Below are positions 16,023-22,468 of a stretch of DNA of 35,279 bases, one piece after another. Under the pieces are notes generated by a model that saw only the letters and a list, made by a program, of their open reading frames with translations, was not told the origin of the DNA and searched no databases. The stretch is taken from NCBI GenBank assembly GCA_016196465.1, contig JACPXR010000051.1, positions 1 through 35,279 on the forward strand, read 5' to 3'. Position 1 is the stretch's first letter. Every line of letters begins with the position of its first letter. The stretch comes from Candidatus Omnitrophota bacterium (GTDB lineage: Bacteria > Omnitrophota > Gorgyraeia > 1-14-0-20-64-10). A program made the position numbers and the translations under genes.

Positions 16023-17017
16023 AACCGCCCCTCAATGTCTGCGTCGTCGGCGTGGGGGCCGTCGGCATCGAGATCCTCCGCGTGCTTAAGGAACGCCGAT
16101 TCCCCATCCGCGCGCTGAAGGTCCTCGCCCGAAGCGCCCGCCCCCTCTCACTCGATGGGGAATCCCTCCGGGTGGAGGCCATCTCTCCCGAGGCCTTTCA
16201 AGGGCAGGATCTGGTCCTCTTCGCCGGCACCGAAGGAGAAAAGGGGGCGGCGGTCACCTACGCCCGCGAGGCGATCCGCCGGGGGGCGCTGGTCATCGAC
16301 AACGGGGCCGACTTCCGGATGGATCCCAAGGTCCCCCTGGTGATCCCCGAGATCAACCCGGAGGACGCCAAAAGGCATGAGGGGATGATCGCCAATCCCA
16401 ACTGCTCCACGATTCAAATGGTGATGGCCCTGGCCCCGGTTCACCGTCGCTTCAAGATCCGGCGGGTCATTGTCTCCACTTACCAGGCCGTTTCCGGAGC
16501 CGGAAGCAAAGCGATCGAAGCGTTGGAAGCCCAGACGGAGGCCACCGTCCGAAAAGTTGCTCTTCCCCCATCAGATCCATTGCCCCAGACCATCATCCAG
16601 AACGTTTTTCCAGAAATTGGCTCTTTTCAGGAGCTGGGATACACCAGCGAGGAATGGAAGATGGTCAGAGAGACCCAGAAAATCCTTCACGACGACCAGA
16701 TGGCCATTACCGCTACCGCGGTCCGGGTGCCGGTCGTCTCCGCCCATTCGGAATCGGTTTACTTTGAAATCGAGCATCCGGCAGCGCTTCAGGATCTGAA
16801 AGGCCTCTGGCGCCAAACTCCCGGCGTCAAGCTGGTGGAAGAGCCGTCCTATCCCATGCCGGTGGAGGCGGTCCATCGAGATGAAGTGTTTATCGGCCGG
16901 GTCCGGCAGGATCCCTTCATCAAGAACGCCTTCTCCTGCTGGGTGGTCTCCGATAACCTCCGGAAAGGGGCGGCCCTCAACGCCGTCCAGATCGCGGAAC
17001 TGTTTCTCACCCCTTGA
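16019..17017 (+). CDS. asd: Aspartate-semialdehyde dehydrogenase
   Basis: ATGA overlap start. ANPNCST, YQAVSGAG, VRVPV..HSE and DNLRKGAALN motifs. Confidence 0.96.
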   Translation: MKPPLNVCVVGVGAVGIEILRVLKERRFPIRALKVLARSARPLSLDGESLRVEAISPEAFQGQDLVLFAGTEGEKGAAVTYAREAIRRGALVIDNGADFRMDPKVPLVIPEINPEDAKRHEGMIANPNCSTIQMVMALAPVHRRFKIRRVIVSTYQAVSGAGSKAIEALEAQTEATVRKVALPPSDPLPQTIIQNVFPEIGSFQELGYTSEEWKMVRETQKILHDDQMAITATAVRVPVVSAHSESVYFEIEHPAALQDLKGLWRQTPGVKLVEEPSYPMPVEAVHRDEVFIGRVRQDPFIKNAFSCWVVSDNLRKGAALNAVQIAELFLTP

Positions 17018-17721
17018 CCCGGACATTCAAATTCACCGTCGCCTATGACGGCTCCCGGTACGCCGGCTGGCAAAGGCAGAAAAACACCAAGACGATCCAG
17101 TCGGTCCTCGAAGAGACCCTCCAGCGCATCACCGGCAGGAGGGCGCACGCGGTGGGAGCGAGCCGGACCGACAGCGGAGTCCACGCCGAGGGGCAGACGG
17201 CCCACGTCCAGCTCCAGACCCGCCTCTCCCCTTCCACCCTTCAACGGGCGATGAACGCCCTCCTCCCGGAGGATATTCTCATCCGGAAAGTGGAGCTGGC
17301 CCCCAGGAGCTTCCACGCCAGGTATCAGGCGAAAAGAAAGTGGTACCGCTACCTCATCTGGAATGAAAAAACCAGGCCCCTCTTCGAGCGGAACCGGGTC
17401 CTCCACCTTCCGGGGCCCCTGGACCTCCAGGCGATGCGGCGGACGGCCCGGAAACTCACCGGCCGGAGGGATTTCCGTCCCTTCTGCTCGGCTTCCGACG
17501 GCCGCAACCACCCCGGCAGCGCCCTCCGGACGATTAGGAAACTTTCCGTCCGCCGGGAGGCAGATCTGGTCCTCATTGACGCGGAGGCGGACGGCTTCCT
17601 CTATCACATGGTCCGCCGGATCGTGGGGCTGCTGATCCAGGTGGGGCAGGGAAAGAGGGCCCTGATTCCCCCGACGGCCCCCGCCAGGGGGCTCTGCCTG
17701 ATGAGGGTCTCCTACCGTTAA
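17014..17721 (+). CDS. truA: tRNA pseudouridine(38-40) synthase
   Basis: TTG start. YDGS.Y.GWQRQ, SRTDSGVHA, FHAR, FLYHMVR and TAPARGL motifs. Confidence 0.95.
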   Translation: MTRTFKFTVAYDGSRYAGWQRQKNTKTIQSVLEETLQRITGRRAHAVGASRTDSGVHAEGQTAHVQLQTRLSPSTLQRAMNALLPEDILIRKVELAPRSFHARYQAKRKWYRYLIWNEKTRPLFERNRVLHLPGPLDLQAMRRTARKLTGRRDFRPFCSASDGRNHPGSALRTIRKLSVRREADLVLIDAEADGFLYHMVRRIVGLLIQVGQGKRALIPPTAPARGLCLMRVSYR

Positions 17722-17742
17722 GCAAGAAAACTCATTTTTCGC

Positions 17743-17771
17743 TTGACAGGGCCGGGGTCATCCTTGATAAT
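17743..17771 (+). promoter_or_regulatory. Sigma70 promoter for the Fur metal cassette
   Basis: TTGACA (17743-17748), a 17-bp spacer, then GATAAT (17766-17771). Confidence 0.8.
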
Positions 17772-17811
17772 GAGACTCGATCTCAACTGAATGAACATGA
17801 GTCTCAATATC
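17766..17811. promoter_or_regulatory. Paired Fur-family operator boxes (inverted repeat)
   Basis: GATAATGAGACTCGATCTC matches 14/19 of the classical Fur box GATAATGATAATCATTATC. The arms gataatgagactc (17766-17778) and gagtctcaatatc (17799-17811) form a 12/13 inverted repeat. Confidence 0.7.
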
Positions 17812-18324
17812 GAACATCCCAAAGGCGCCGAGGTGATCCTCTTTCCTCGGCACGCCCGCCGCCCTGAGCAGTTCAAGGCGTGGCTGGCCAACATCCTCCA
17901 GACCTTCCAGGAGCACCTGGGCCGGCAGGGCCTGAAATTGACCCGCCAGCGGGAGGAGATCCTCCGGGCCCTCATGGCGGCCGACCGGCACCTGGGGATG
18001 GAGGAGCTCTACAGCTCGCTGAAGAAGCAGGACCCGACGATCGGCCGGGCCACGATCTTCCGGACGGTGAAGCTCCTCCAGGAGTGCGGGCTGGTGGCCG
18101 AGGTCGGCTCGGTGAACGGGGCGGCGAAGTTCGAGCTCAAGGCCGACCGCCCCCACCACGACCACATGATCTGCGTGGAATGTTCTCGGATCACCGAGTT
18201 CCAAAGCCCCATGATGGAGCGCTTTCAGGACGAGGCGATCCGCCGTCACGGCTTCACCGCCCTCTGGCACCGGCACGAGATCTTCGGCCGCTGCCGCGAC
18301 TGCTGGAAGAAACGGAACCGTTAA
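17791..18324 (+). CDS. fur: Fur-family metalloregulator (start may be 17791, 17797 or GTG 17833)
   Basis: T.QR..IL, IGRATIFRT..LL...GL, HHDHMIC..C and C-terminal G.CxxC. Confidence 0.92.
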   Translation: MNMSLNIEHPKGAEVILFPRHARRPEQFKAWLANILQTFQEHLGRQGLKLTRQREEILRALMAADRHLGMEELYSSLKKQDPTIGRATIFRTVKLLQECGLVAEVGSVNGAAKFELKADRPHHDHMICVECSRITEFQSPMMERFQDEAIRRHGFTALWHRHEIFGRCRDCWKKRNR

Positions 18325-18341
18325 CCGAAAGGAACCTTCGC

Positions 18342-18569
18342 TTGAAATCTTGGAGGGGCATCGGAGTGGTCCTTTTGTTCCTGGCCGGGTGCGCCCATGC
18401 CGGGGAGACACCCGTTCGTCTGGCCTCGGCCTGTCCCGCGAACCCCCCCGGTCCCACGGTCCTGTGCAAGCACTGCAACTGCTACATGCCGGCCGACGCA
18501 GACCCCGCCGCGCCGTGCACGGTCTGCAACTGCGGCTACCGGAACGCCCAGTGCGTCCGGGGAAAATAG
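18342..18569 (+). CDS. Small Cys-rich lipoprotein (75 aa, twin CxxCNC), putative metal-binding
   Basis: TTG start 8 nt after GAAAGGA. Signal peptide KSWRGIGVVLLF followed by lipobox LAGC, then CKHCNC and CTVCNC. It fills the gap between fur and the next ATG (18571). Confidence 0.75.
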   Translation: MKSWRGIGVVLLFLAGCAHAGETPVRLASACPANPPGPTVLCKHCNCYMPADADPAAPCTVCNCGYRNAQCVRGK

Positions 18570-18570
18570 G

Positions 18571-19332
18571 ATGACAAAAGTTCAATCGCTGCTGATCGTG
18601 GGGCTCTCCGTCGGAGCCGCCTTGGCGTTTCCGCCGAAACCGGCCTTCGCCCACCTGCGGGATTACATCTTCAACCAGGGGTACCACACCTCCCGCAAGG
18701 GGGAGTTCGAGATCGAGCTGCACAACGACCTTAACTTGAAGGAGGCCGACAACGACGAGAGCTACAGCTCCAAACACCAGGTGGAGCTAGAATACGGCGT
18801 CACGGATCACCTTCAGCTGGCGACCTACGAGGTGTTCAAGTGGGACCGCAAGGATGATTTCGAGCGGGACGAGCTGAAGGTCGAGGGGAAGGTTCGCCTT
18901 CTGGAAAGCGGCGAGCTTCCGGTGGACATCGCCCTCTACGGGGAGTATAAGAATCCCAACGGGCACCACGACCAGAGAAGCGACGCCATGGAGCTCAAGC
19001 TGATCTTGAGCAAGGATCTCGGCCCCTGGAACGTCACCGGGAACCTGATCACGGAACGGAAGATCAACCAGCACGATCCCTGGGCCTTCGAGTACACGCT
19101 GGGCATCAGCCGTCCGGTCCATCCTCAGGTCCGGCTGGGCCTGGAGATCAAGGAGGGCCTGGGGACCACTGAGGATCTGGGAGTGCGCCGGAAAGGACAC
19201 AAATTCCAGCTGATGCCGATGGTGGCCTGGAGCCCGACGCCCCACAGCCGGGTCCTCTTCGGGCCGGCCTTCGGCCTGACCCGGGCCAGTGACGACATCC
19301 AGTTGAAAAGCATCGCGTCAATCGAGTTCTGA
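18571..19332 (+). CDS. Exported, probably outer-membrane beta-barrel protein of unknown function
   Basis: Signal peptide ending AFA|H, alternating amphipathic strands (EFEIELH, VELEYGV, WNVTGNL, FEYTLGIS) and a C-terminal Phe (IASIEF). Confidence 0.7.
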   Translation: MTKVQSLLIVGLSVGAALAFPPKPAFAHLRDYIFNQGYHTSRKGEFEIELHNDLNLKEADNDESYSSKHQVELEYGVTDHLQLATYEVFKWDRKDDFERDELKVEGKVRLLESGELPVDIALYGEYKNPNGHHDQRSDAMELKLILSKDLGPWNVTGNLITERKINQHDPWAFEYTLGISRPVHPQVRLGLEIKEGLGTTEDLGVRRKGHKFQLMPMVAWSPTPHSRVLFGPAFGLTRASDDIQLKSIASIEF

Positions 19333-20486
19333 TGACTCCCCACCTCTCCGGACCGTGGCTCTTGGGGCTCCTCGCGGGAGGCACGATCTTCCTGGGGCTT
19401 CCGATCGCCCGCTTCAGCCGGGTCTCCTCCAAAACAAAGGCCTTTCTCAACGCCGTCTCCACCGGGATTCTGATCTTCCTCCTCGTGGAGATCACCGGAC
19501 ACTTGATCGAGGAGATCGAAGAGCTGGTCGAATCGGCGATCGGGTCGGGAGGAAACCTGAGCGCGGCGCTGCGCTATGGAGGGCTCTTTGCCCTCGGGTT
19601 CTCGGCGGGTCTGTTGAGTCTCGTCTACTTTGAGAAACGGTTTCTCGGCTCGATCAAGGACCAGGAGACAGCCCCGGCCAGAAAGGCAAAGCAGTTGGCG
19701 ATGATGATCGCCGTGGGCTTAGGGTTGCACAATCTCAGCGAGGGGTTGGCCATCGGGCAGGGGTATGTCGGCGGAGCGATGCAGCTGGCGTGGCTGATGG
19801 CGATCGGCTTCGCCCTTCACAACGCTACGGAGGGTTTTGGGATCGCAGCCCCTCTCTCCGGGCATCGGGCGAGCTGGGGGTTTCTCGGAACCGCGGGCTT
19901 GATCGCGGGAGGGCCCACGTTCCTCGGGACCCTCATCGGAAGCGGGTGGACGAACAAGTCAGTCGAGATCTTCTGTCTGGCGCTGGCGGCCGGAACGATC
20001 CTCTACATCATCGGGGAGCTGCTTCACCTGGGCCGGCTCCTGAAAGGGGAGGCGATCGTGGAGATGGGGCTCTTGGTGGGGTTCTTCGTCGCCATGGCCT
20101 CGGACTTCACCATCTCCGCGGCGATGGAGATGAACGCCCCCCACGCCCCCCGCCACGGCGGCTATTTCGGGGACGCCAACGACCTCTACCACTATGAACT
20201 GATCCCCGGGACCGACAACCGGCTCCTCCTGTACGTCAACGATCAGATGAACCGGCCTCTCGAGGCCTCGACCCTCCAGGGCCGCTGGACCCTGAACCCG
20301 GACTCCAGCGCCCCCACGATGGGCTTCTTTACCCCCTCCAGGGAAGGAAACTTCCTCGTGGGGGAGCTTCCGGGAAACTTCCGGAACGACCCCATCCACG
20401 TGAGGGTCGAGGTCCTCAAAGGAACCGCTTGGGCCCCCATGGAATTTTACGTCCCCCGCAAATCAAGCAAGTCTCCGGAAAAGTAA
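19332..20486 (+). CDS. ZIP/ZupT-family divalent metal permease with an extra C-terminal soluble His-motif domain
   Basis: GLHNLSEG and ALHNATEG transport-site motifs and about 8 TMs, followed by a ~120-aa hydrophilic tail with HAPRHGG...YHYEL. Confidence 0.88.
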   Translation: MTPHLSGPWLLGLLAGGTIFLGLPIARFSRVSSKTKAFLNAVSTGILIFLLVEITGHLIEEIEELVESAIGSGGNLSAALRYGGLFALGFSAGLLSLVYFEKRFLGSIKDQETAPARKAKQLAMMIAVGLGLHNLSEGLAIGQGYVGGAMQLAWLMAIGFALHNATEGFGIAAPLSGHRASWGFLGTAGLIAGGPTFLGTLIGSGWTNKSVEIFCLALAAGTILYIIGELLHLGRLLKGEAIVEMGLLVGFFVAMASDFTISAAMEMNAPHAPRHGGYFGDANDLYHYELIPGTDNRLLLYVNDQMNRPLEASTLQGRWTLNPDSSAPTMGFFTPSREGNFLVGELPGNFRNDPIHVRVEVLKGTAWAPMEFYVPRKSSKSPEK

Positions 20487-20489
20487 TCC

Positions 20490-20517
20490 TTGAATTTTAG
20501 GTAGGTCTTGCTACACT
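20490..20517 (+). promoter_or_regulatory. Promoter for rplM-rpsI (TTGAAT-16-TACACT, with extended TG)
   Basis: TTGAAT at 20490-20495; TGcTACACT at 20509-20517; ATG at 20529. Confidence 0.65.
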
Positions 20518-20528
20518 AAAGGTTTACG

Positions 20529-20963
20529 ATGCTGAGAACAAAAACCTTTCAAATCAGAGTGGAAGAGGTCTCCAGGCAGTGGCACTTGGTGGATGCCGAG
20601 GGGAAGATTCTGGGCCGTTTGGCGACCCAGGTGGCCGTCCTTCTAAGGGGCAAGCAGAAGCCGGTCTTCACCCCCTCGGTGGACTGTGGGGACGGGGTCG
20701 TCGTCATCAACGCTGAAAAGATCCGGGTGACGGGGACGAAGCTCGAGACCAAGATCTACCGACGCTTCTCCGGTTACCCGAGCGGCCTGAAAGAGGAGCC
20801 CTTAGGGTCCCTCCTCAGCCGCCGGCCGACGGAAGCGGTCCGCCGAGCGGTCATCGGGATGCTCCCCTCCAACCCTCTCGGACGGCAGGTGGCCAAGCGG
20901 CTGAAGGTGTACGCCGGAGCCCAGCATCCCCACGCCGCCCAGCTGAAAGGGGCCTCCTCATGA
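20529..20963 (+). CDS. rplM: 50S ribosomal protein L13
   Basis: W.LVDA.G.ILGRLA, LRGK.KP.FTP..DCGD and LKVYAG..HPH.AQ. Confidence 0.98.
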
Positions 20964-21337
20964 TCACGACGGGCAGAAGGAAAGAGGCGGTCGCCCGGGT
21001 GAGCCTAAAGGCCGGCAAAGGCCAGATCCTGGTGAACGGGCGCAGCTTAACCGACTATTTCCCACGAATCTCTTTGCAGACTCTGGTTCGCGAACCCCTG
21101 GAAGCCACCCAGGCCGCGGACCGGTTTGATTGTGTCGCTCAGGTGGCAGGTGGAGGCCTCACCGGCCAAGCCGGCGCTCTGCGCCACGGCCTGGCAAGGG
21201 CCCTGTGCGCCGCTGACGATTCCTTGAAAGCCGTTCTGCGCAAGTCCGGATTCCTCACCCGGGATTCCCGGGTGAGGGAACGGAAGAAATACGGCCAGAA
21301 GGGCGCTCGGAAGCGGTTCCAGTGGACCAAGCGTTAA
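20960..21337 (+). CDS. rpsI: 30S ribosomal protein S9
   Basis: TGRRK.AVARV, GGG..GQAGA.RHG and ERKKYG...ARK.FQ..KR. Confidence 0.98.
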
Positions 21338-21352
21338 CCAGCTCTTAACACC

Positions 21353-21427
21353 GGCCTATTCTTCCTAAGAAACGAGTCGTCTTCAAAAGGGCTCTGTGGA
21401 AGAGGAAGGGTAGGTTGTTTTCTTTTT
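21353..21427 (+). terminator. Terminator/attenuator-like stem with T-rich tail between rpsI and argC
   Basis: cctattcttcc (21355-21365) pairs with ggaagggtagg (21404-21414), giving 11 bp including 2 G-U, and a T-rich run follows. The loop is unusually large. Confidence 0.5.
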
Positions 21428-21433
21428 AAGAGG

Positions 21434-22468
21434 ATGAACATCCAAGCGGGAATCATCGGGGTCACCGGTTACGCCGGCAGCGAGCTTCTTCGAATTCTCC
21501 TCCGGCATGAGGGGATTTCTGTCCGGTACCTGGGGAGCCGACGGCTCCTCTCTCCGAAGCCGCTGGGGGAGCTCCTCCCCTCTTTCAGGGGGACCTCCGC
21601 GCTTGTGGTTCGCCCTTTCCGGCTGAAGGAGGCCCTCGAGGCCTGCGACGTTCTGTTTCTGGCCCTTCCCCATGGAACCGCCATGAAATTGGTCCCCCAG
21701 ATCTTCCGGAAGAAGTCCATCAAAGTGGTGGACTTCAGCGGCGACTTCCGCCTGGCCTCGAAGGCCTCATTCCGGAAGGCGTATCATCTTGGCCACTGCG
21801 CTTCCGCTCTCCTCAAAGAAGCGGTCTACGGACTCCCCGAGTGGAACCGGGAAGCGATCCGCTCCGCCCGCCTGGTGGCCAACCCCGGCTGCTACCCGAC
21901 CGCCGCGCTTCTGGCGCTGGCCCCGCTGGCTGTGGCGGGGCTTCTCGCCTCCGAGGGGCTCGTCGTCGACGCCAAGTCCGGCTTGACCGGCGCGGGCCGC
22001 TCCTTGAGAGAAGATCTGCTTTTTTCGGAGGTCAACGAGGATGTAAGGGCCTACCGGGTGAACCAACATCAGCACATGCCGGAAATGGAGCAAGAGCTCC
22101 GCCGGATGAACGGACGAAAAGTTCAGCTCACCTTTGTCCCGCACCTGGTGCCTCTCGACCGGGGGCTTTACGCGACGGTCTACGCGCCGCTGACCAAGGC
22201 CCTCACCGAGAAAGGCCTGCGCTCCCTCTACCGGAGGGCCTACGAAAAGGAACCGTTCATCCAGCTCCTTCCCGAAGAGGCCTGGCCTCAGGCCAAGTCG
22301 GTGGCGGGTTCCAACCGCTGCGAAATCGGGCTGCGCCTCGCCCCGGGAGGAAAGAGAGTGATCCTCCTTTCGGCCATCGACAACCTCGGCAAGGGGGCCG
22401 CCGGGCAGGCGGTCCAGAACATGAATCTCCTCTTCGATCTGGAGGAAACCCAAGGGCTCCTTCCATGA
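21434..22468 (+). CDS. argC: N-acetyl-gamma-glutamyl-phosphate reductase
   Basis: G.TGYAG.EL, ALPHG, ANPGCYPT, SG.TGAGR and IDNLGKGAAGQAVQNMN. Confidence 0.97.
   Translation: MNIQAGIIGVTGYAGSELLRILLRHEGISVRYLGSRRLLSPKPLGELLPSFRGTSALVVRPFRLKEALEACDVLFLALPHGTAMKLVPQIFRKKSIKVVDFSGDFRLASKASFRKAYHLGHCASALLKEAVYGLPEWNREAIRSARLVANPGCYPTAALLALAPLAVAGLLASEGLVVDAKSGLTGAGRSLREDLLFSEVNEDVRAYRVNQHQHMPEMEQELRRMNGRKVQLTFVPHLVPLDRGLYATVYAPLTKALTEKGLRSLYRRAYEKEPFIQLLPEEAWPQAKSVAGSNRCEIGLRLAPGGKRVILLSAIDNLGKGAAGQAVQNMNLLFDLEETQGLLP

Follow-up and report, generated by a model that had tools for sequence, protein, structure and literature searches.

Gene content and predicted transcriptional control of the locus

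The window, that is the whole stretch of DNA analysed here, comprises 35,279 nucleotides (nt) of a Candidatus Omnitrophota bacterium (GenBank assembly GCA_016196465.1, contig JACPXR010000051.1, forward strand) and corresponds to contig C93 of a genome of 1.41 Mb in 138 contigs that is 83% complete, referred to below as the own genome. Between truA (17014-17721) and rplM (20529-20963) it contains a block of four genes, all on the forward strand, which code for a Fur-family metalloregulator, a Cys-rich lipoprotein, a predicted outer-membrane barrel and a ZIP-family permease with an additional C-terminal domain (Table 1). We propose that this block is probably a Fur-autorepressed operon for the acquisition of Fe2+ that requires neither a TonB motor nor ATP. 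The four genes are separated by 17, 1 and -1 nt. An earlier, sequence-only reading of this DNA had described a strong promoter overlapped by Fur-like boxes, four tightly packed genes, a lipoprotein with eight Cys residues beyond the lipobox, a signal-peptide protein ending in Phe and a ZIP permease with a His-motif domain, and all of these elements were found, with the correction that the lipoprotein starts at the TTG codon at 18342. The public genomes closest to the own genome were assembled from metagenomes and are of the Omnitrophota type, although some are deposited as 'uncultured Planctomycetia'. Three sequencing runs contain matching DNA, all from one groundwater study, and no RNA run is listed.

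Table 1. Features of the four-gene block and its control region (window coordinates)
Feature	Position	Strand	Description
Promoter, sigma-70-type	17743..17771	+	TTGACA 17743-17748, spacer 17 nt, GATAAT 17766-17771
Operator, Fur-type (putative)	17766..17811	+	Inverted arms and conserved 19-nt core; covers the -10 hexamer and the fur start
fur	17791..18324	+	Fur-family metalloregulator, 177 amino acids, PF01475
Lipoprotein gene	18342..18569	+	75 amino acids, TTG start, lipobox LAGC
Barrel gene	18571..19332	+	253 amino acids, signal peptide, C-terminal Phe
ZIP gene	19332..20486	+	384 amino acids, PF02535 and extra domain
ZIP permease core	19332..20126	+	Residues 1-265; motifs HNLSEG, HNATEG
ZIP C-terminal beta-sandwich domain	20127..20486	+	Residues 266-384; predicted periplasmic; HAPRHGG, YHYE

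The promoter in front of fur matches the consensus at 11 of 12 positions and is the single sigma-70-like site between positions 17000 and 21500, a stretch for which shuffled sequences gave 0.3 sites on average. Both hexamers are kept upstream of the fur genes of relatives. The putative operator consists of a 13-nt inverted repeat (arms 17766-17778 and 17799-17811, complementarity 92%) and a 19-nt core (17769-17787), which overlaps the -10 hexamer and has the form TGAGA-N5-TCTCA inside an AAT...AAT frame. All 10 relatives with a Fur protein at least 60% identical carry this core ahead of fur, with one to four mismatches. When a matrix derived from these 11 sites (the window and the 10 relatives) was scanned over the own genome, the window operator scored 33.0 bits and the next best site 16.7 bits; the second operator arm, on the opposite strand, reached 15.8 bits by the same matrix. 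Conservation at the fur genes of relatives and a score far above the rest of the own genome suggest that the operator is dedicated and autoregulatory. Its layout, 7-1-7 with TGA...TCA ends, is that of the delta-proteobacterial FUR box as presented in the accessible part of PMC545781, but the core differs from the one shown there. The second arm overlies codons 3-7 of the annotated fur open reading frame (ORF), and the start codon of fur is therefore uncertain. No terminator-like site was found on the forward strand across 17000-21500. The 42 nt between the ZIP stop codon and rplM-rpsI (20487-20528) form a short, terminator-free gap, so that read-through from the metal-regulated promoter into the ribosomal protein genes is possible.

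The regulator belongs to the Fur family (PF01475, 113.4 bits against a cut-off of 23.1, residues 46-163). Its motifs HHDH (122-125), CVEC (128-131) and CRDC (168-171) align with the same residues of Campylobacter jejuni Fur, with which it also shares an identical PHHDHMIC stretch. Among solved structures, C. jejuni Fur is the best match (4ets/6d57, 113.7 bits), followed by the Fur proteins of Magnetospirillum (85.8) and Helicobacter pylori (81.6), PerR (74.8) and Zur (71.2). No other Fur-family gene was found in the own genome. The canonical Fur domain is preceded by some 35-40 conserved residues (17791-17910) that form an N-terminal extension with the motif EVILFPxHARxPxQF....

A barrel family associated with Fur and iron permeases

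The product of the third gene has a signal peptide (residues 1-27) followed by 12 strands in the best AlphaFold2 model (predicted local distance difference test, pLDDT, 76.8), which was computed on a 17-sequence alignment. Foldseek matched this model to FapF (5o68, E 1.7e-9, TMq 0.67) and to the COG4313 channel 4rl8 (E 5e-6, TMq 0.61), and the model shows the 12-stranded outer-membrane barrel of the COG4313 and Phenol_MetA_deg channels. At the sequence level, the protein stays below the Pfam cut-offs of PF13557 (17.7 bits, cut-off 22) and DUF5777 (PF19089; 15.6 bits, cut-off 23.1), some of its relatives bear precomputed PF19089 or PF13557 labels, and PF04966 (OprB) and PF07396 were absent among the Pfam matches at E values up to 1. 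A word-indexed search returned 188 family members at E <= 0.001, all of them unnamed or 'hypothetical', and in the ESM Atlas the barrel falls into 'hypothetical protein' clusters. Within the phylum, 41 of 301 sampled genomes contain a match (E <= 1e-10). The match to one homologue, encoded by another genome of the class (G127:C2:152468-153172), includes a single in-frame TAG.

In 68 members from many phyla, residues Q70, E72, E74, Y75, G76, Y86, Y123, E125, E141, E192 and P216 are invariant, and two further glutamates are nearly so (E47 in 67 and E49 in 65 of the 68). The invariant charged residues occupy i, i+2 positions of the predicted strands and should hence face the lumen, which would result in an acidic, cation-selective channel. 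H28, the N-terminal His of the mature barrel, was considered as a family-wide metal ligand and rejected, since it is invariant in the close clade described below but not in distant members.

A pattern scan with one genome per species gave 112 confirmed barrel loci, of which 80 were kept; these come from phyla including Omnitrophota, Nitrospirota, Elusimicrobiota, Planctomycetota, Verrucomicrobiota, Bacteroidota, Myxococcota and Zetaproteobacteria. Neighbouring genes were found by tblastn with Pfam-checked queries, and recurrent neighbours by clustering all ORFs. A Fur-family gene is present in 49 of the 80 loci and lies within 700 nt of the barrel in 41 (in 35 of the 63 loci that have at least 1.2 kb of DNA on both sides). 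FeoB was found in 24 loci, a DtxR-FeoA fusion in 13, FeoA in 6, a ZIP permease in 10 and an FTR1 permease in 4; altogether, 55 loci contain Fur or one of these proteins. No Nramp cluster was among the recurrent neighbour clusters. The permease partner of the barrel thus varies, and the recurrent partners are all of the iron type, which constitutes the main argument for iron as the substrate.

Two further arrangements were noted. A second PF13557 barrel is encoded in 8 of the 80 loci, directly 3' of the first one (L045, 5786-6565, and seven more Nitrospirota-type loci, in which DtxR-FeoA and FeoB are also found). In the iron-oxidising Zetaproteobacteria, the barrel loci contain a nearby cupredoxin-like gene (cluster 11, 7 loci; for instance L085, 3696-4073) and show neither Fur nor Feo genes close by, and the barrel family may have a second, redox-linked context in these organisms.

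Two candidate periplasmic metal-binding modules

The lipoprotein starts with a signal peptide and a lipobox Cys, MKSWRGIGVVLLFLAG-C, in which the TTG start is read as M. The Ala residue at position +2 makes it probable that the protein is located on the outer membrane. Eight Cys residues follow the lipobox Cys, of which the eighth, C31, is not conserved. In the family alignment of 23 sequences with lengths of 64-77 amino acids, residues G16, C17, C42, H44, C45, C47, C59, C62, C64 and C71 are invariant. The core of the window protein reads CKHCNC, 11 residues, CTVCNC, 6 residues and C, and that of the family LCKHCNCYMPADxDPxxxCxVCNCGYxxxxCxRG. With four more ligands, these two CxxC knuckles point to one or two possible metal sites, which may bind iron, zinc or a cluster, or else the Cys residues may form disulfides. 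The lipoprotein matched no family in Pfam or NCBIfam, and its best ESM Atlas score, 0.81, was uninformative. Neither the lipoprotein nor the barrel matched a known unrelated function in these three resources; a match of that kind would have spoken against the sequence-only reading. The lipoprotein is encoded in 12 of the 15 close barrel loci and in 0 of 65 distant ones, and it accompanies the barrel irrespective of whether a ZIP or an FTR1 permease follows. A complex prediction for the mature barrel and the mature lipoprotein (score 0.04, mark 0.32) gave no answer from the model.

The permease is a member of the ZIP family (PF02535, 43 bits, cut-off 35.1), with the motifs HNLSEG at residues 133-138 and HNATEG at residues 163-168. 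It aligns with residues 128-305 of the 309 residues of BbZIP (5tsa), and both motifs line up with the BbZIP metal site. As the alignment stops at residue 305 of 309, ZIP residues 266-384 represent a C-terminal add-on. The C-terminus of ZIP-family proteins is situated outside the cytoplasm. In addition, most relatives of this domain are stand-alone proteins of about 150 amino acids with a signal-like N-terminus, and these free homologues, together with a permease core that ends where BbZIP does, suggest a periplasmic location.

The domain of 119 amino acids carries the motifs HAPRHGG (271-277, H-x3-HGG) and YHYE (286-289), and AlphaFold2 predicts an eight-stranded sandwich (pLDDT 92.7). An exhaustive profile-free search found 44 relatives among 1.84 billion protein representatives. 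In 26 aligned sequences (domain numbering), H10, G11, G12, E24 and W102 are invariant and D16, H22, Y23, E106 and F107 nearly so; these homologues share no Pfam family and have no PF10634 match at E values up to 1. An SBP_bac_6 binding protein is joined to one stand-alone homologue, and an HMBD motif accompanies another relative. A sequence comparison against the PDB returned chance-level rows only (best E 0.12, antibody chains), and Foldseek, whose rows include FetP, gave none from the PDB at E <= 0.001. Using VIA-align against 48,161 chains, a search in which unrelated models typically reach a best Z of 7-8, the domain matched H. pylori CrdA (9ll2, Z 10.3), the iron- and copper-bound Treponema denticola HftA (8t7m, Z 9.1), Tp34 (3pjl, Z 8.6) and FtrA-P19 (7r4z, Z 8.2), which make up four of the top eight rows. 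For the P19-type proteins, these Z values of 8.2-9.1 correspond to a root mean square deviation of 3.1-3.2 A over 100-102 residues. Since the scores are modestly above background, we read the domain as one that may work like P19-type proteins and not as a member of that family.

Conservation of the gene set and alternative modules at the same site

A close clade is formed by 15 loci (L010-L024) with barrels that share at least 45% identity with that of the window. Fur lies upstream of the barrel in 14 of them, the remaining locus, L017, beginning inside the barrel gene. The lipoprotein gene is present in 12 and missing from L016 and L020, and L017 is again cut. The next permease is a ZIP protein in ten loci and FTR1 in three (L015, L022 and L023; PF03239 at 111-124 bits), the remaining two loci ending at the barrel. 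The C-terminal domain is present in eight of the ten ZIP proteins and missing from those of L010 and L020. The full order of Fur, lipoprotein, barrel and ZIP with its domain is found in L011, L012, L013, L014, L018 and L019, that is in six other species-level genomes, in addition to partial cases. This co-occurrence supports the expectation that the four genes belong together as a conserved unit under its own regulation. In 10 of the 15 loci (for instance L012, 4744-4980), a gene for a DUF2292 (YezD-like) protein immediately precedes the barrel gene, between lipoprotein and barrel where a lipoprotein gene exists; tblastn found no DUF2292 gene in the window or in the own genome.

In relatives with the ZIP fusion or with the free domain, four types of module occupy the position between Fur and the importer, and most of them end at rplM. 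Type A consists of the lipoprotein, with or without DUF2292, and the barrel (six contigs; a further contig has the barrel alone and another is truncated). Type B (L004, 2242-5992; L103) codes for DUF2292, a porin-like protein of 472 amino acids with a coiled-coil N-terminus, FMN_bind, a membrane protein of 183 amino acids and ApbE. This module looks like a flavin-based ferric reductase placed ahead of the ZIP fusion, and matches the flavin-based iron-reduction clusters discussed in the accessible part of PMC8238504. Type C contains DUF2292, a TonB-dependent receptor (720 amino acids in L001, 1472-6000), ExbB, ExbD and TonB, and is found in L001/L098, L002/L104, L099, L109 and the cut loci L003/L106. 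Here, a ZIP permease would serve a TonB-dependent receptor where an ATP-binding cassette (ABC) transporter would be usual. Type D (L112, 619-5337) comprises TonB, a PhnD-type ABC transporter, the free domain as a secreted protein of 142 amino acids and a ferritin-like gene. In L020, the barrel is followed by ExbB-ExbD-TonB and a plain ZIP.

The window cassette is thus the TonB-free version of a modular locus, as the alternative modules of relatives indicate. The sequence-only reading had supposed that the block was inserted between truA and rplM. A recent insertion was rejected: the GC content of the block (0.60-0.65) is the same as that of its flanks, and relatives use the same truA...rplM slot. 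The slot is modular. The claim of TonB independence stands for the window, inside whose cassette there are no TonB or ABC transporter genes, but does not extend to the clade, as in five contigs of relatives the ZIP fusion follows a TonB-dependent receptor and ExbB-ExbD-TonB.

A proposed model of iron uptake and its alternatives

Taken together, it appears fairly likely that the block is a conserved, self-regulated, envelope-spanning metal-uptake operon, with iron as the best-supported metal. Iron is suggested by the barrel neighbours Fur, FeoB (with FeoA) and FTR1, by a regulator nearest to iron Fur proteins and by a C-terminal domain whose predicted fold comes closest to CrdA and P19/FtrA, and it is further supported by the FMN_bind/ApbE or ferritin genes in the slot of relatives and by the SBP_bac_6 fusion of one stand-alone homologue of the domain. 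The lean of the sequence-only reading towards Fe(II) is in line with these associations. Searched by tblastn, the own genome returned no FeoB, FeoA, DtxR-FeoA, FTR1, porin, FMN_bind or ApbE, the only hits being generic GTPase P-loops; an ExbB/ExbD-like pair is encoded on contig C116, and no TonB match was obtained. Judged from these gene searches, the operon is the sole recognisable iron-import route within the assembled 83% of the own genome.

The gene content and how it is conserved, together with the operator, the predicted folds and the genomic neighbours, lead us to infer the metal, a direction of hand-over and the following binding steps. When iron is plentiful, metal-loaded Fur would occupy the operator over the -10 hexamer and switch off the single promoter, whereas under iron scarcity the four genes would be co-transcribed. 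The 12-stranded barrel with its lumen glutamates would act as a cation-selective channel through which Fe2+ passes the outer membrane. The lipoprotein, with its seven Cys residues and one His (Cys7-His), would be tethered in the periplasm and assist the barrel in this clade only, by binding metal or by holding iron in its reduced state. Subsequently, the beta-sandwich fused to the ZIP protein would catch the ion by His, Glu and Asp residues, akin to P19/FtrA beside FTR1, and hand it to the ZIP metal site for import. The pore, the chaperone and the ZIP permease would, in this proposal, form a physical relay.

Several observations weigh against this model. The regulator stays below every NCBIfam Fur equivalog cut-off (best 101.9 against 220), which leaves the metal that it senses unsettled from sequence, and the operator core departs from classical Fur boxes. 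The ZIP protein scores 44.8 bits against the ZupT equivalog (NF003243) with its cut-off of 252 and is thus not a ZupT by this measure; at such a distance its substrate is unreadable from homology. A single barrel model of five reached pLDDT 76.8, the other four ranging from 52 to 63, and the lumen-facing position of the glutamates was deduced from residue spacing alone. The Z values of 8-10 for the C-terminal domain barely exceed the background of 7-8, and neither the sequence family nor the metal-site motif of P19 is shared. A Cys-rich protein fits zinc or copper equally well as iron. Neither the lipoprotein nor the ZIP domain is obligatory, given that L016 and L020 do without the former and L010 and L020 have a plain ZIP. 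Finally, 25 of the 80 barrel loci, the Zetaproteobacteria included, contain no Fur or iron permease in the available DNA.

ZIP proteins are best known as zinc importers, and the cassette could accordingly serve zinc uptake, with the regulator being a Zur, the ZIP protein importing Zn2+ and the lipoprotein and His-rich domain acting as zinc chaperones. The best NCBIfam row for the permease is ZupT, though far below the cut-off, the seven Cys residues and one His of the lipoprotein form two CxxCxC knuckles that resemble zinc-binding modules, and some stand-alone homologues of the C-terminal domain (P0174, P0178) have His-rich N-terminal tails. Zinc systems such as ZnuD use TonB-dependent receptors, and the ZIP fusion of relatives is paired with such a receptor. 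However, the regulator scores 113.7 bits against an iron Fur and 71.2 and 66.9 bits against the Zur and FurB structures (46.9 bits against the NCBIfam Zur model), the partners of the barrel elsewhere are FeoB, FeoA and FTR1 and not ZnuABC, and redox (FMN_bind/ApbE) and ferritin genes in the slot of relatives would make no sense for zinc. We therefore regard zinc uptake as unlikely. The last two points also bear on manganese, for which a Mur-like Fur homologue would control a Mn2+-selective channel and a ZIP permease. Fur proteins bind Mn2+ as well at their HHDH site, and an acidic channel would be poor at telling Fe2+ from Mn2+. Moreover, outer-membrane Mn2+ uptake by MnoP, which operates with MntH in Bradyrhizobium, and manganese import by ZIP members are documented in the accessible part of PMC9334652. 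Yet the barrel neighbours are iron permeases and FeoA-type proteins with no recurrent Nramp cluster among them, ferritin and ferric-reductase-type genes share the slot of relatives, and a sole Fur-family gene in a genome of this completeness favours a general iron sensor, so that manganese seems a quite improbable substrate.

A different division of labour is conceivable if iron is the substrate: the lipoprotein and the barrel could form a redox device, in which a lipoprotein with a metal centre (rubredoxin-like or Fe-S) at or in the barrel reduces external Fe(III), as a counterpart of FMN_bind/ApbE. One or two redox sites could be formed by the knuckles C42/C45 and C59/C62 together with C47, C64, C71 and H44, the same position between Fur and the ZIP fusion holds a porin, FMN_bind, a membrane protein and ApbE in relatives, and the lipoprotein travels with the barrel under ZIP and FTR1 alike. 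P19-FTR1 clusters likewise include FMN-binding or thioredoxin-like partners, for which a redox role has been proposed (PMC8238504, in the part available). On the other hand, none of the libraries searched recognised a cofactor or redox motif, the cassette contains no electron donor gene, the barrels of L016 and L020 occur without the lipoprotein, and a 12-stranded barrel is narrow for housing a protein. In our view there is a slim chance that this describes the cassette. That the four genes are mere neighbours with unrelated functions behind one promoter is very unlikely: the regulator could control targets in the unassembled 17% of the genome, but the gene order recurs in six complete and several partial loci of different species-level genomes, the gaps between the genes are 17, 1 and -1 nt, and Fur and barrel are paired within 700 nt in 41 of 80 loci from many phyla.

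Fe2+ acquisition under Fur control thus remains the explanation that we favour. A wider proposal would combine three statements, namely that the barrel is a widespread dedicated ferrous-iron pore pairing interchangeably with FeoAB, FTR1 and ZIP under Fur in at least eight phyla, that the beta-sandwich and the Cys7-His lipoprotein each represent a new family of periplasmic proteins that handle iron, and that the fur-rplM interval is a swap site at which three or four entry modules (passive pore, flavin reductase and porin, TonB-dependent receptor) replace one another ahead of a shared importer. That all three hold jointly is a tentative suggestion, to which we would give somewhat less than an even chance. 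The passage of free Fe2+ across the outer membrane is usually ascribed to general porins; a conserved Fur-linked channel family, if confirmed, would give this step a dedicated and testable component. Similarly, a ZIP protein with a built-in periplasmic metal-binding domain would represent a new way to gain affinity or selectivity, and the swappable modules would amount to natural experiments on the iron supply of small-genome bacteria in anoxic groundwater.

Comparison with known systems

The cassette is built from three uncharacterised protein families, known only as unnamed 'hypothetical proteins', whereas the general concept has already been published. The literature searched contained no description of this family of barrels, of the lipoprotein or of any fusion between a ZIP protein and a P19-like domain. 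Nothing was found linking COG4313 or DUF2292 to iron; the literature on DUF5777/Phenol_MetA_deg concerned aromatic catabolism and surveys, with no iron link found, and nothing was found on iron uptake through ZIP in Omnitrophota or on periplasmic fusions of ZIP, P19 or FTR1. The sequence-only reading had called the relay undescribed, which holds for these three families but not for a Fur-controlled porin that feeds an Fe(II) permease: predictions from 2004-2008, reported in the accessible parts of PMC545781 and PMC2631029, already place such porins, of other families, next to Fe(II) transporters. Iron import by ZIP proteins also has a precedent in the broad-spectrum ZupT (Grass 2005, cited in the available part of PMC9334652).

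Closest in arrangement are feoPABC of Acidithiobacillus ferrooxidans, where a Fur-controlled channel likewise forms one unit with an Fe(II) permease (PMC2631029), and the psp and OprB-type porin genes next to feoAB in Geobacter and Desulfuromonas, for which the same arrangement was proposed to provide ferrous-iron entry (PMC545781). According to the sections of these papers that were accessible, the feoP and psp porins are members of the OprB (PF04966) or the phosphate-porin-like (PF07396) family, and they are combined with FeoB as the permease. In contrast, the cassette combines a small 12-stranded barrel of an unnamed family with a ZIP permease and two extra periplasmic parts, and its barrel is likened to these porins by arrangement only. 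A channel and a secondary importer are also joined in MnoP/MntH of Bradyrhizobium (Hohle 2011, cited in PMC9334652), where, as proposed here, a dedicated metal-regulated channel for a free divalent cation works without TonB or ATP. This likeness follows the description in the available part of PMC9334652, and the system differs in its metal, manganese, in its regulator and in that its genes do not form one operon.

For the periplasmic and inner-membrane steps, the nearest counterparts are P19, FetP and FtrA with their FTR1-type permeases (cFtr1-P19, FetMP and FtrABCD), in which, as proposed here, a periplasmic beta-sandwich serves a secondary iron permease; these systems often add a redox or Cys-containing partner, a place that the Cys-rich lipoprotein would take in the cassette (both points from the accessible part of PMC8238504). 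However, the C-terminal domain is unrelated in sequence to the P19-type proteins (7r4z, 8t7m, 3pjl and 3nrp) and has the motif H-x3-HGG...D...YHYE, it is part of the same polypeptide as the permease, which belongs to the ZIP family and not to FTR1. With ZupT and BbZIP, this permease shares the eight-helix core and two HNxxEG-type motifs, but unlike them it carries a predicted periplasmic domain of 119 amino acids, and its gene, instead of standing alone, closes a Fur operon.

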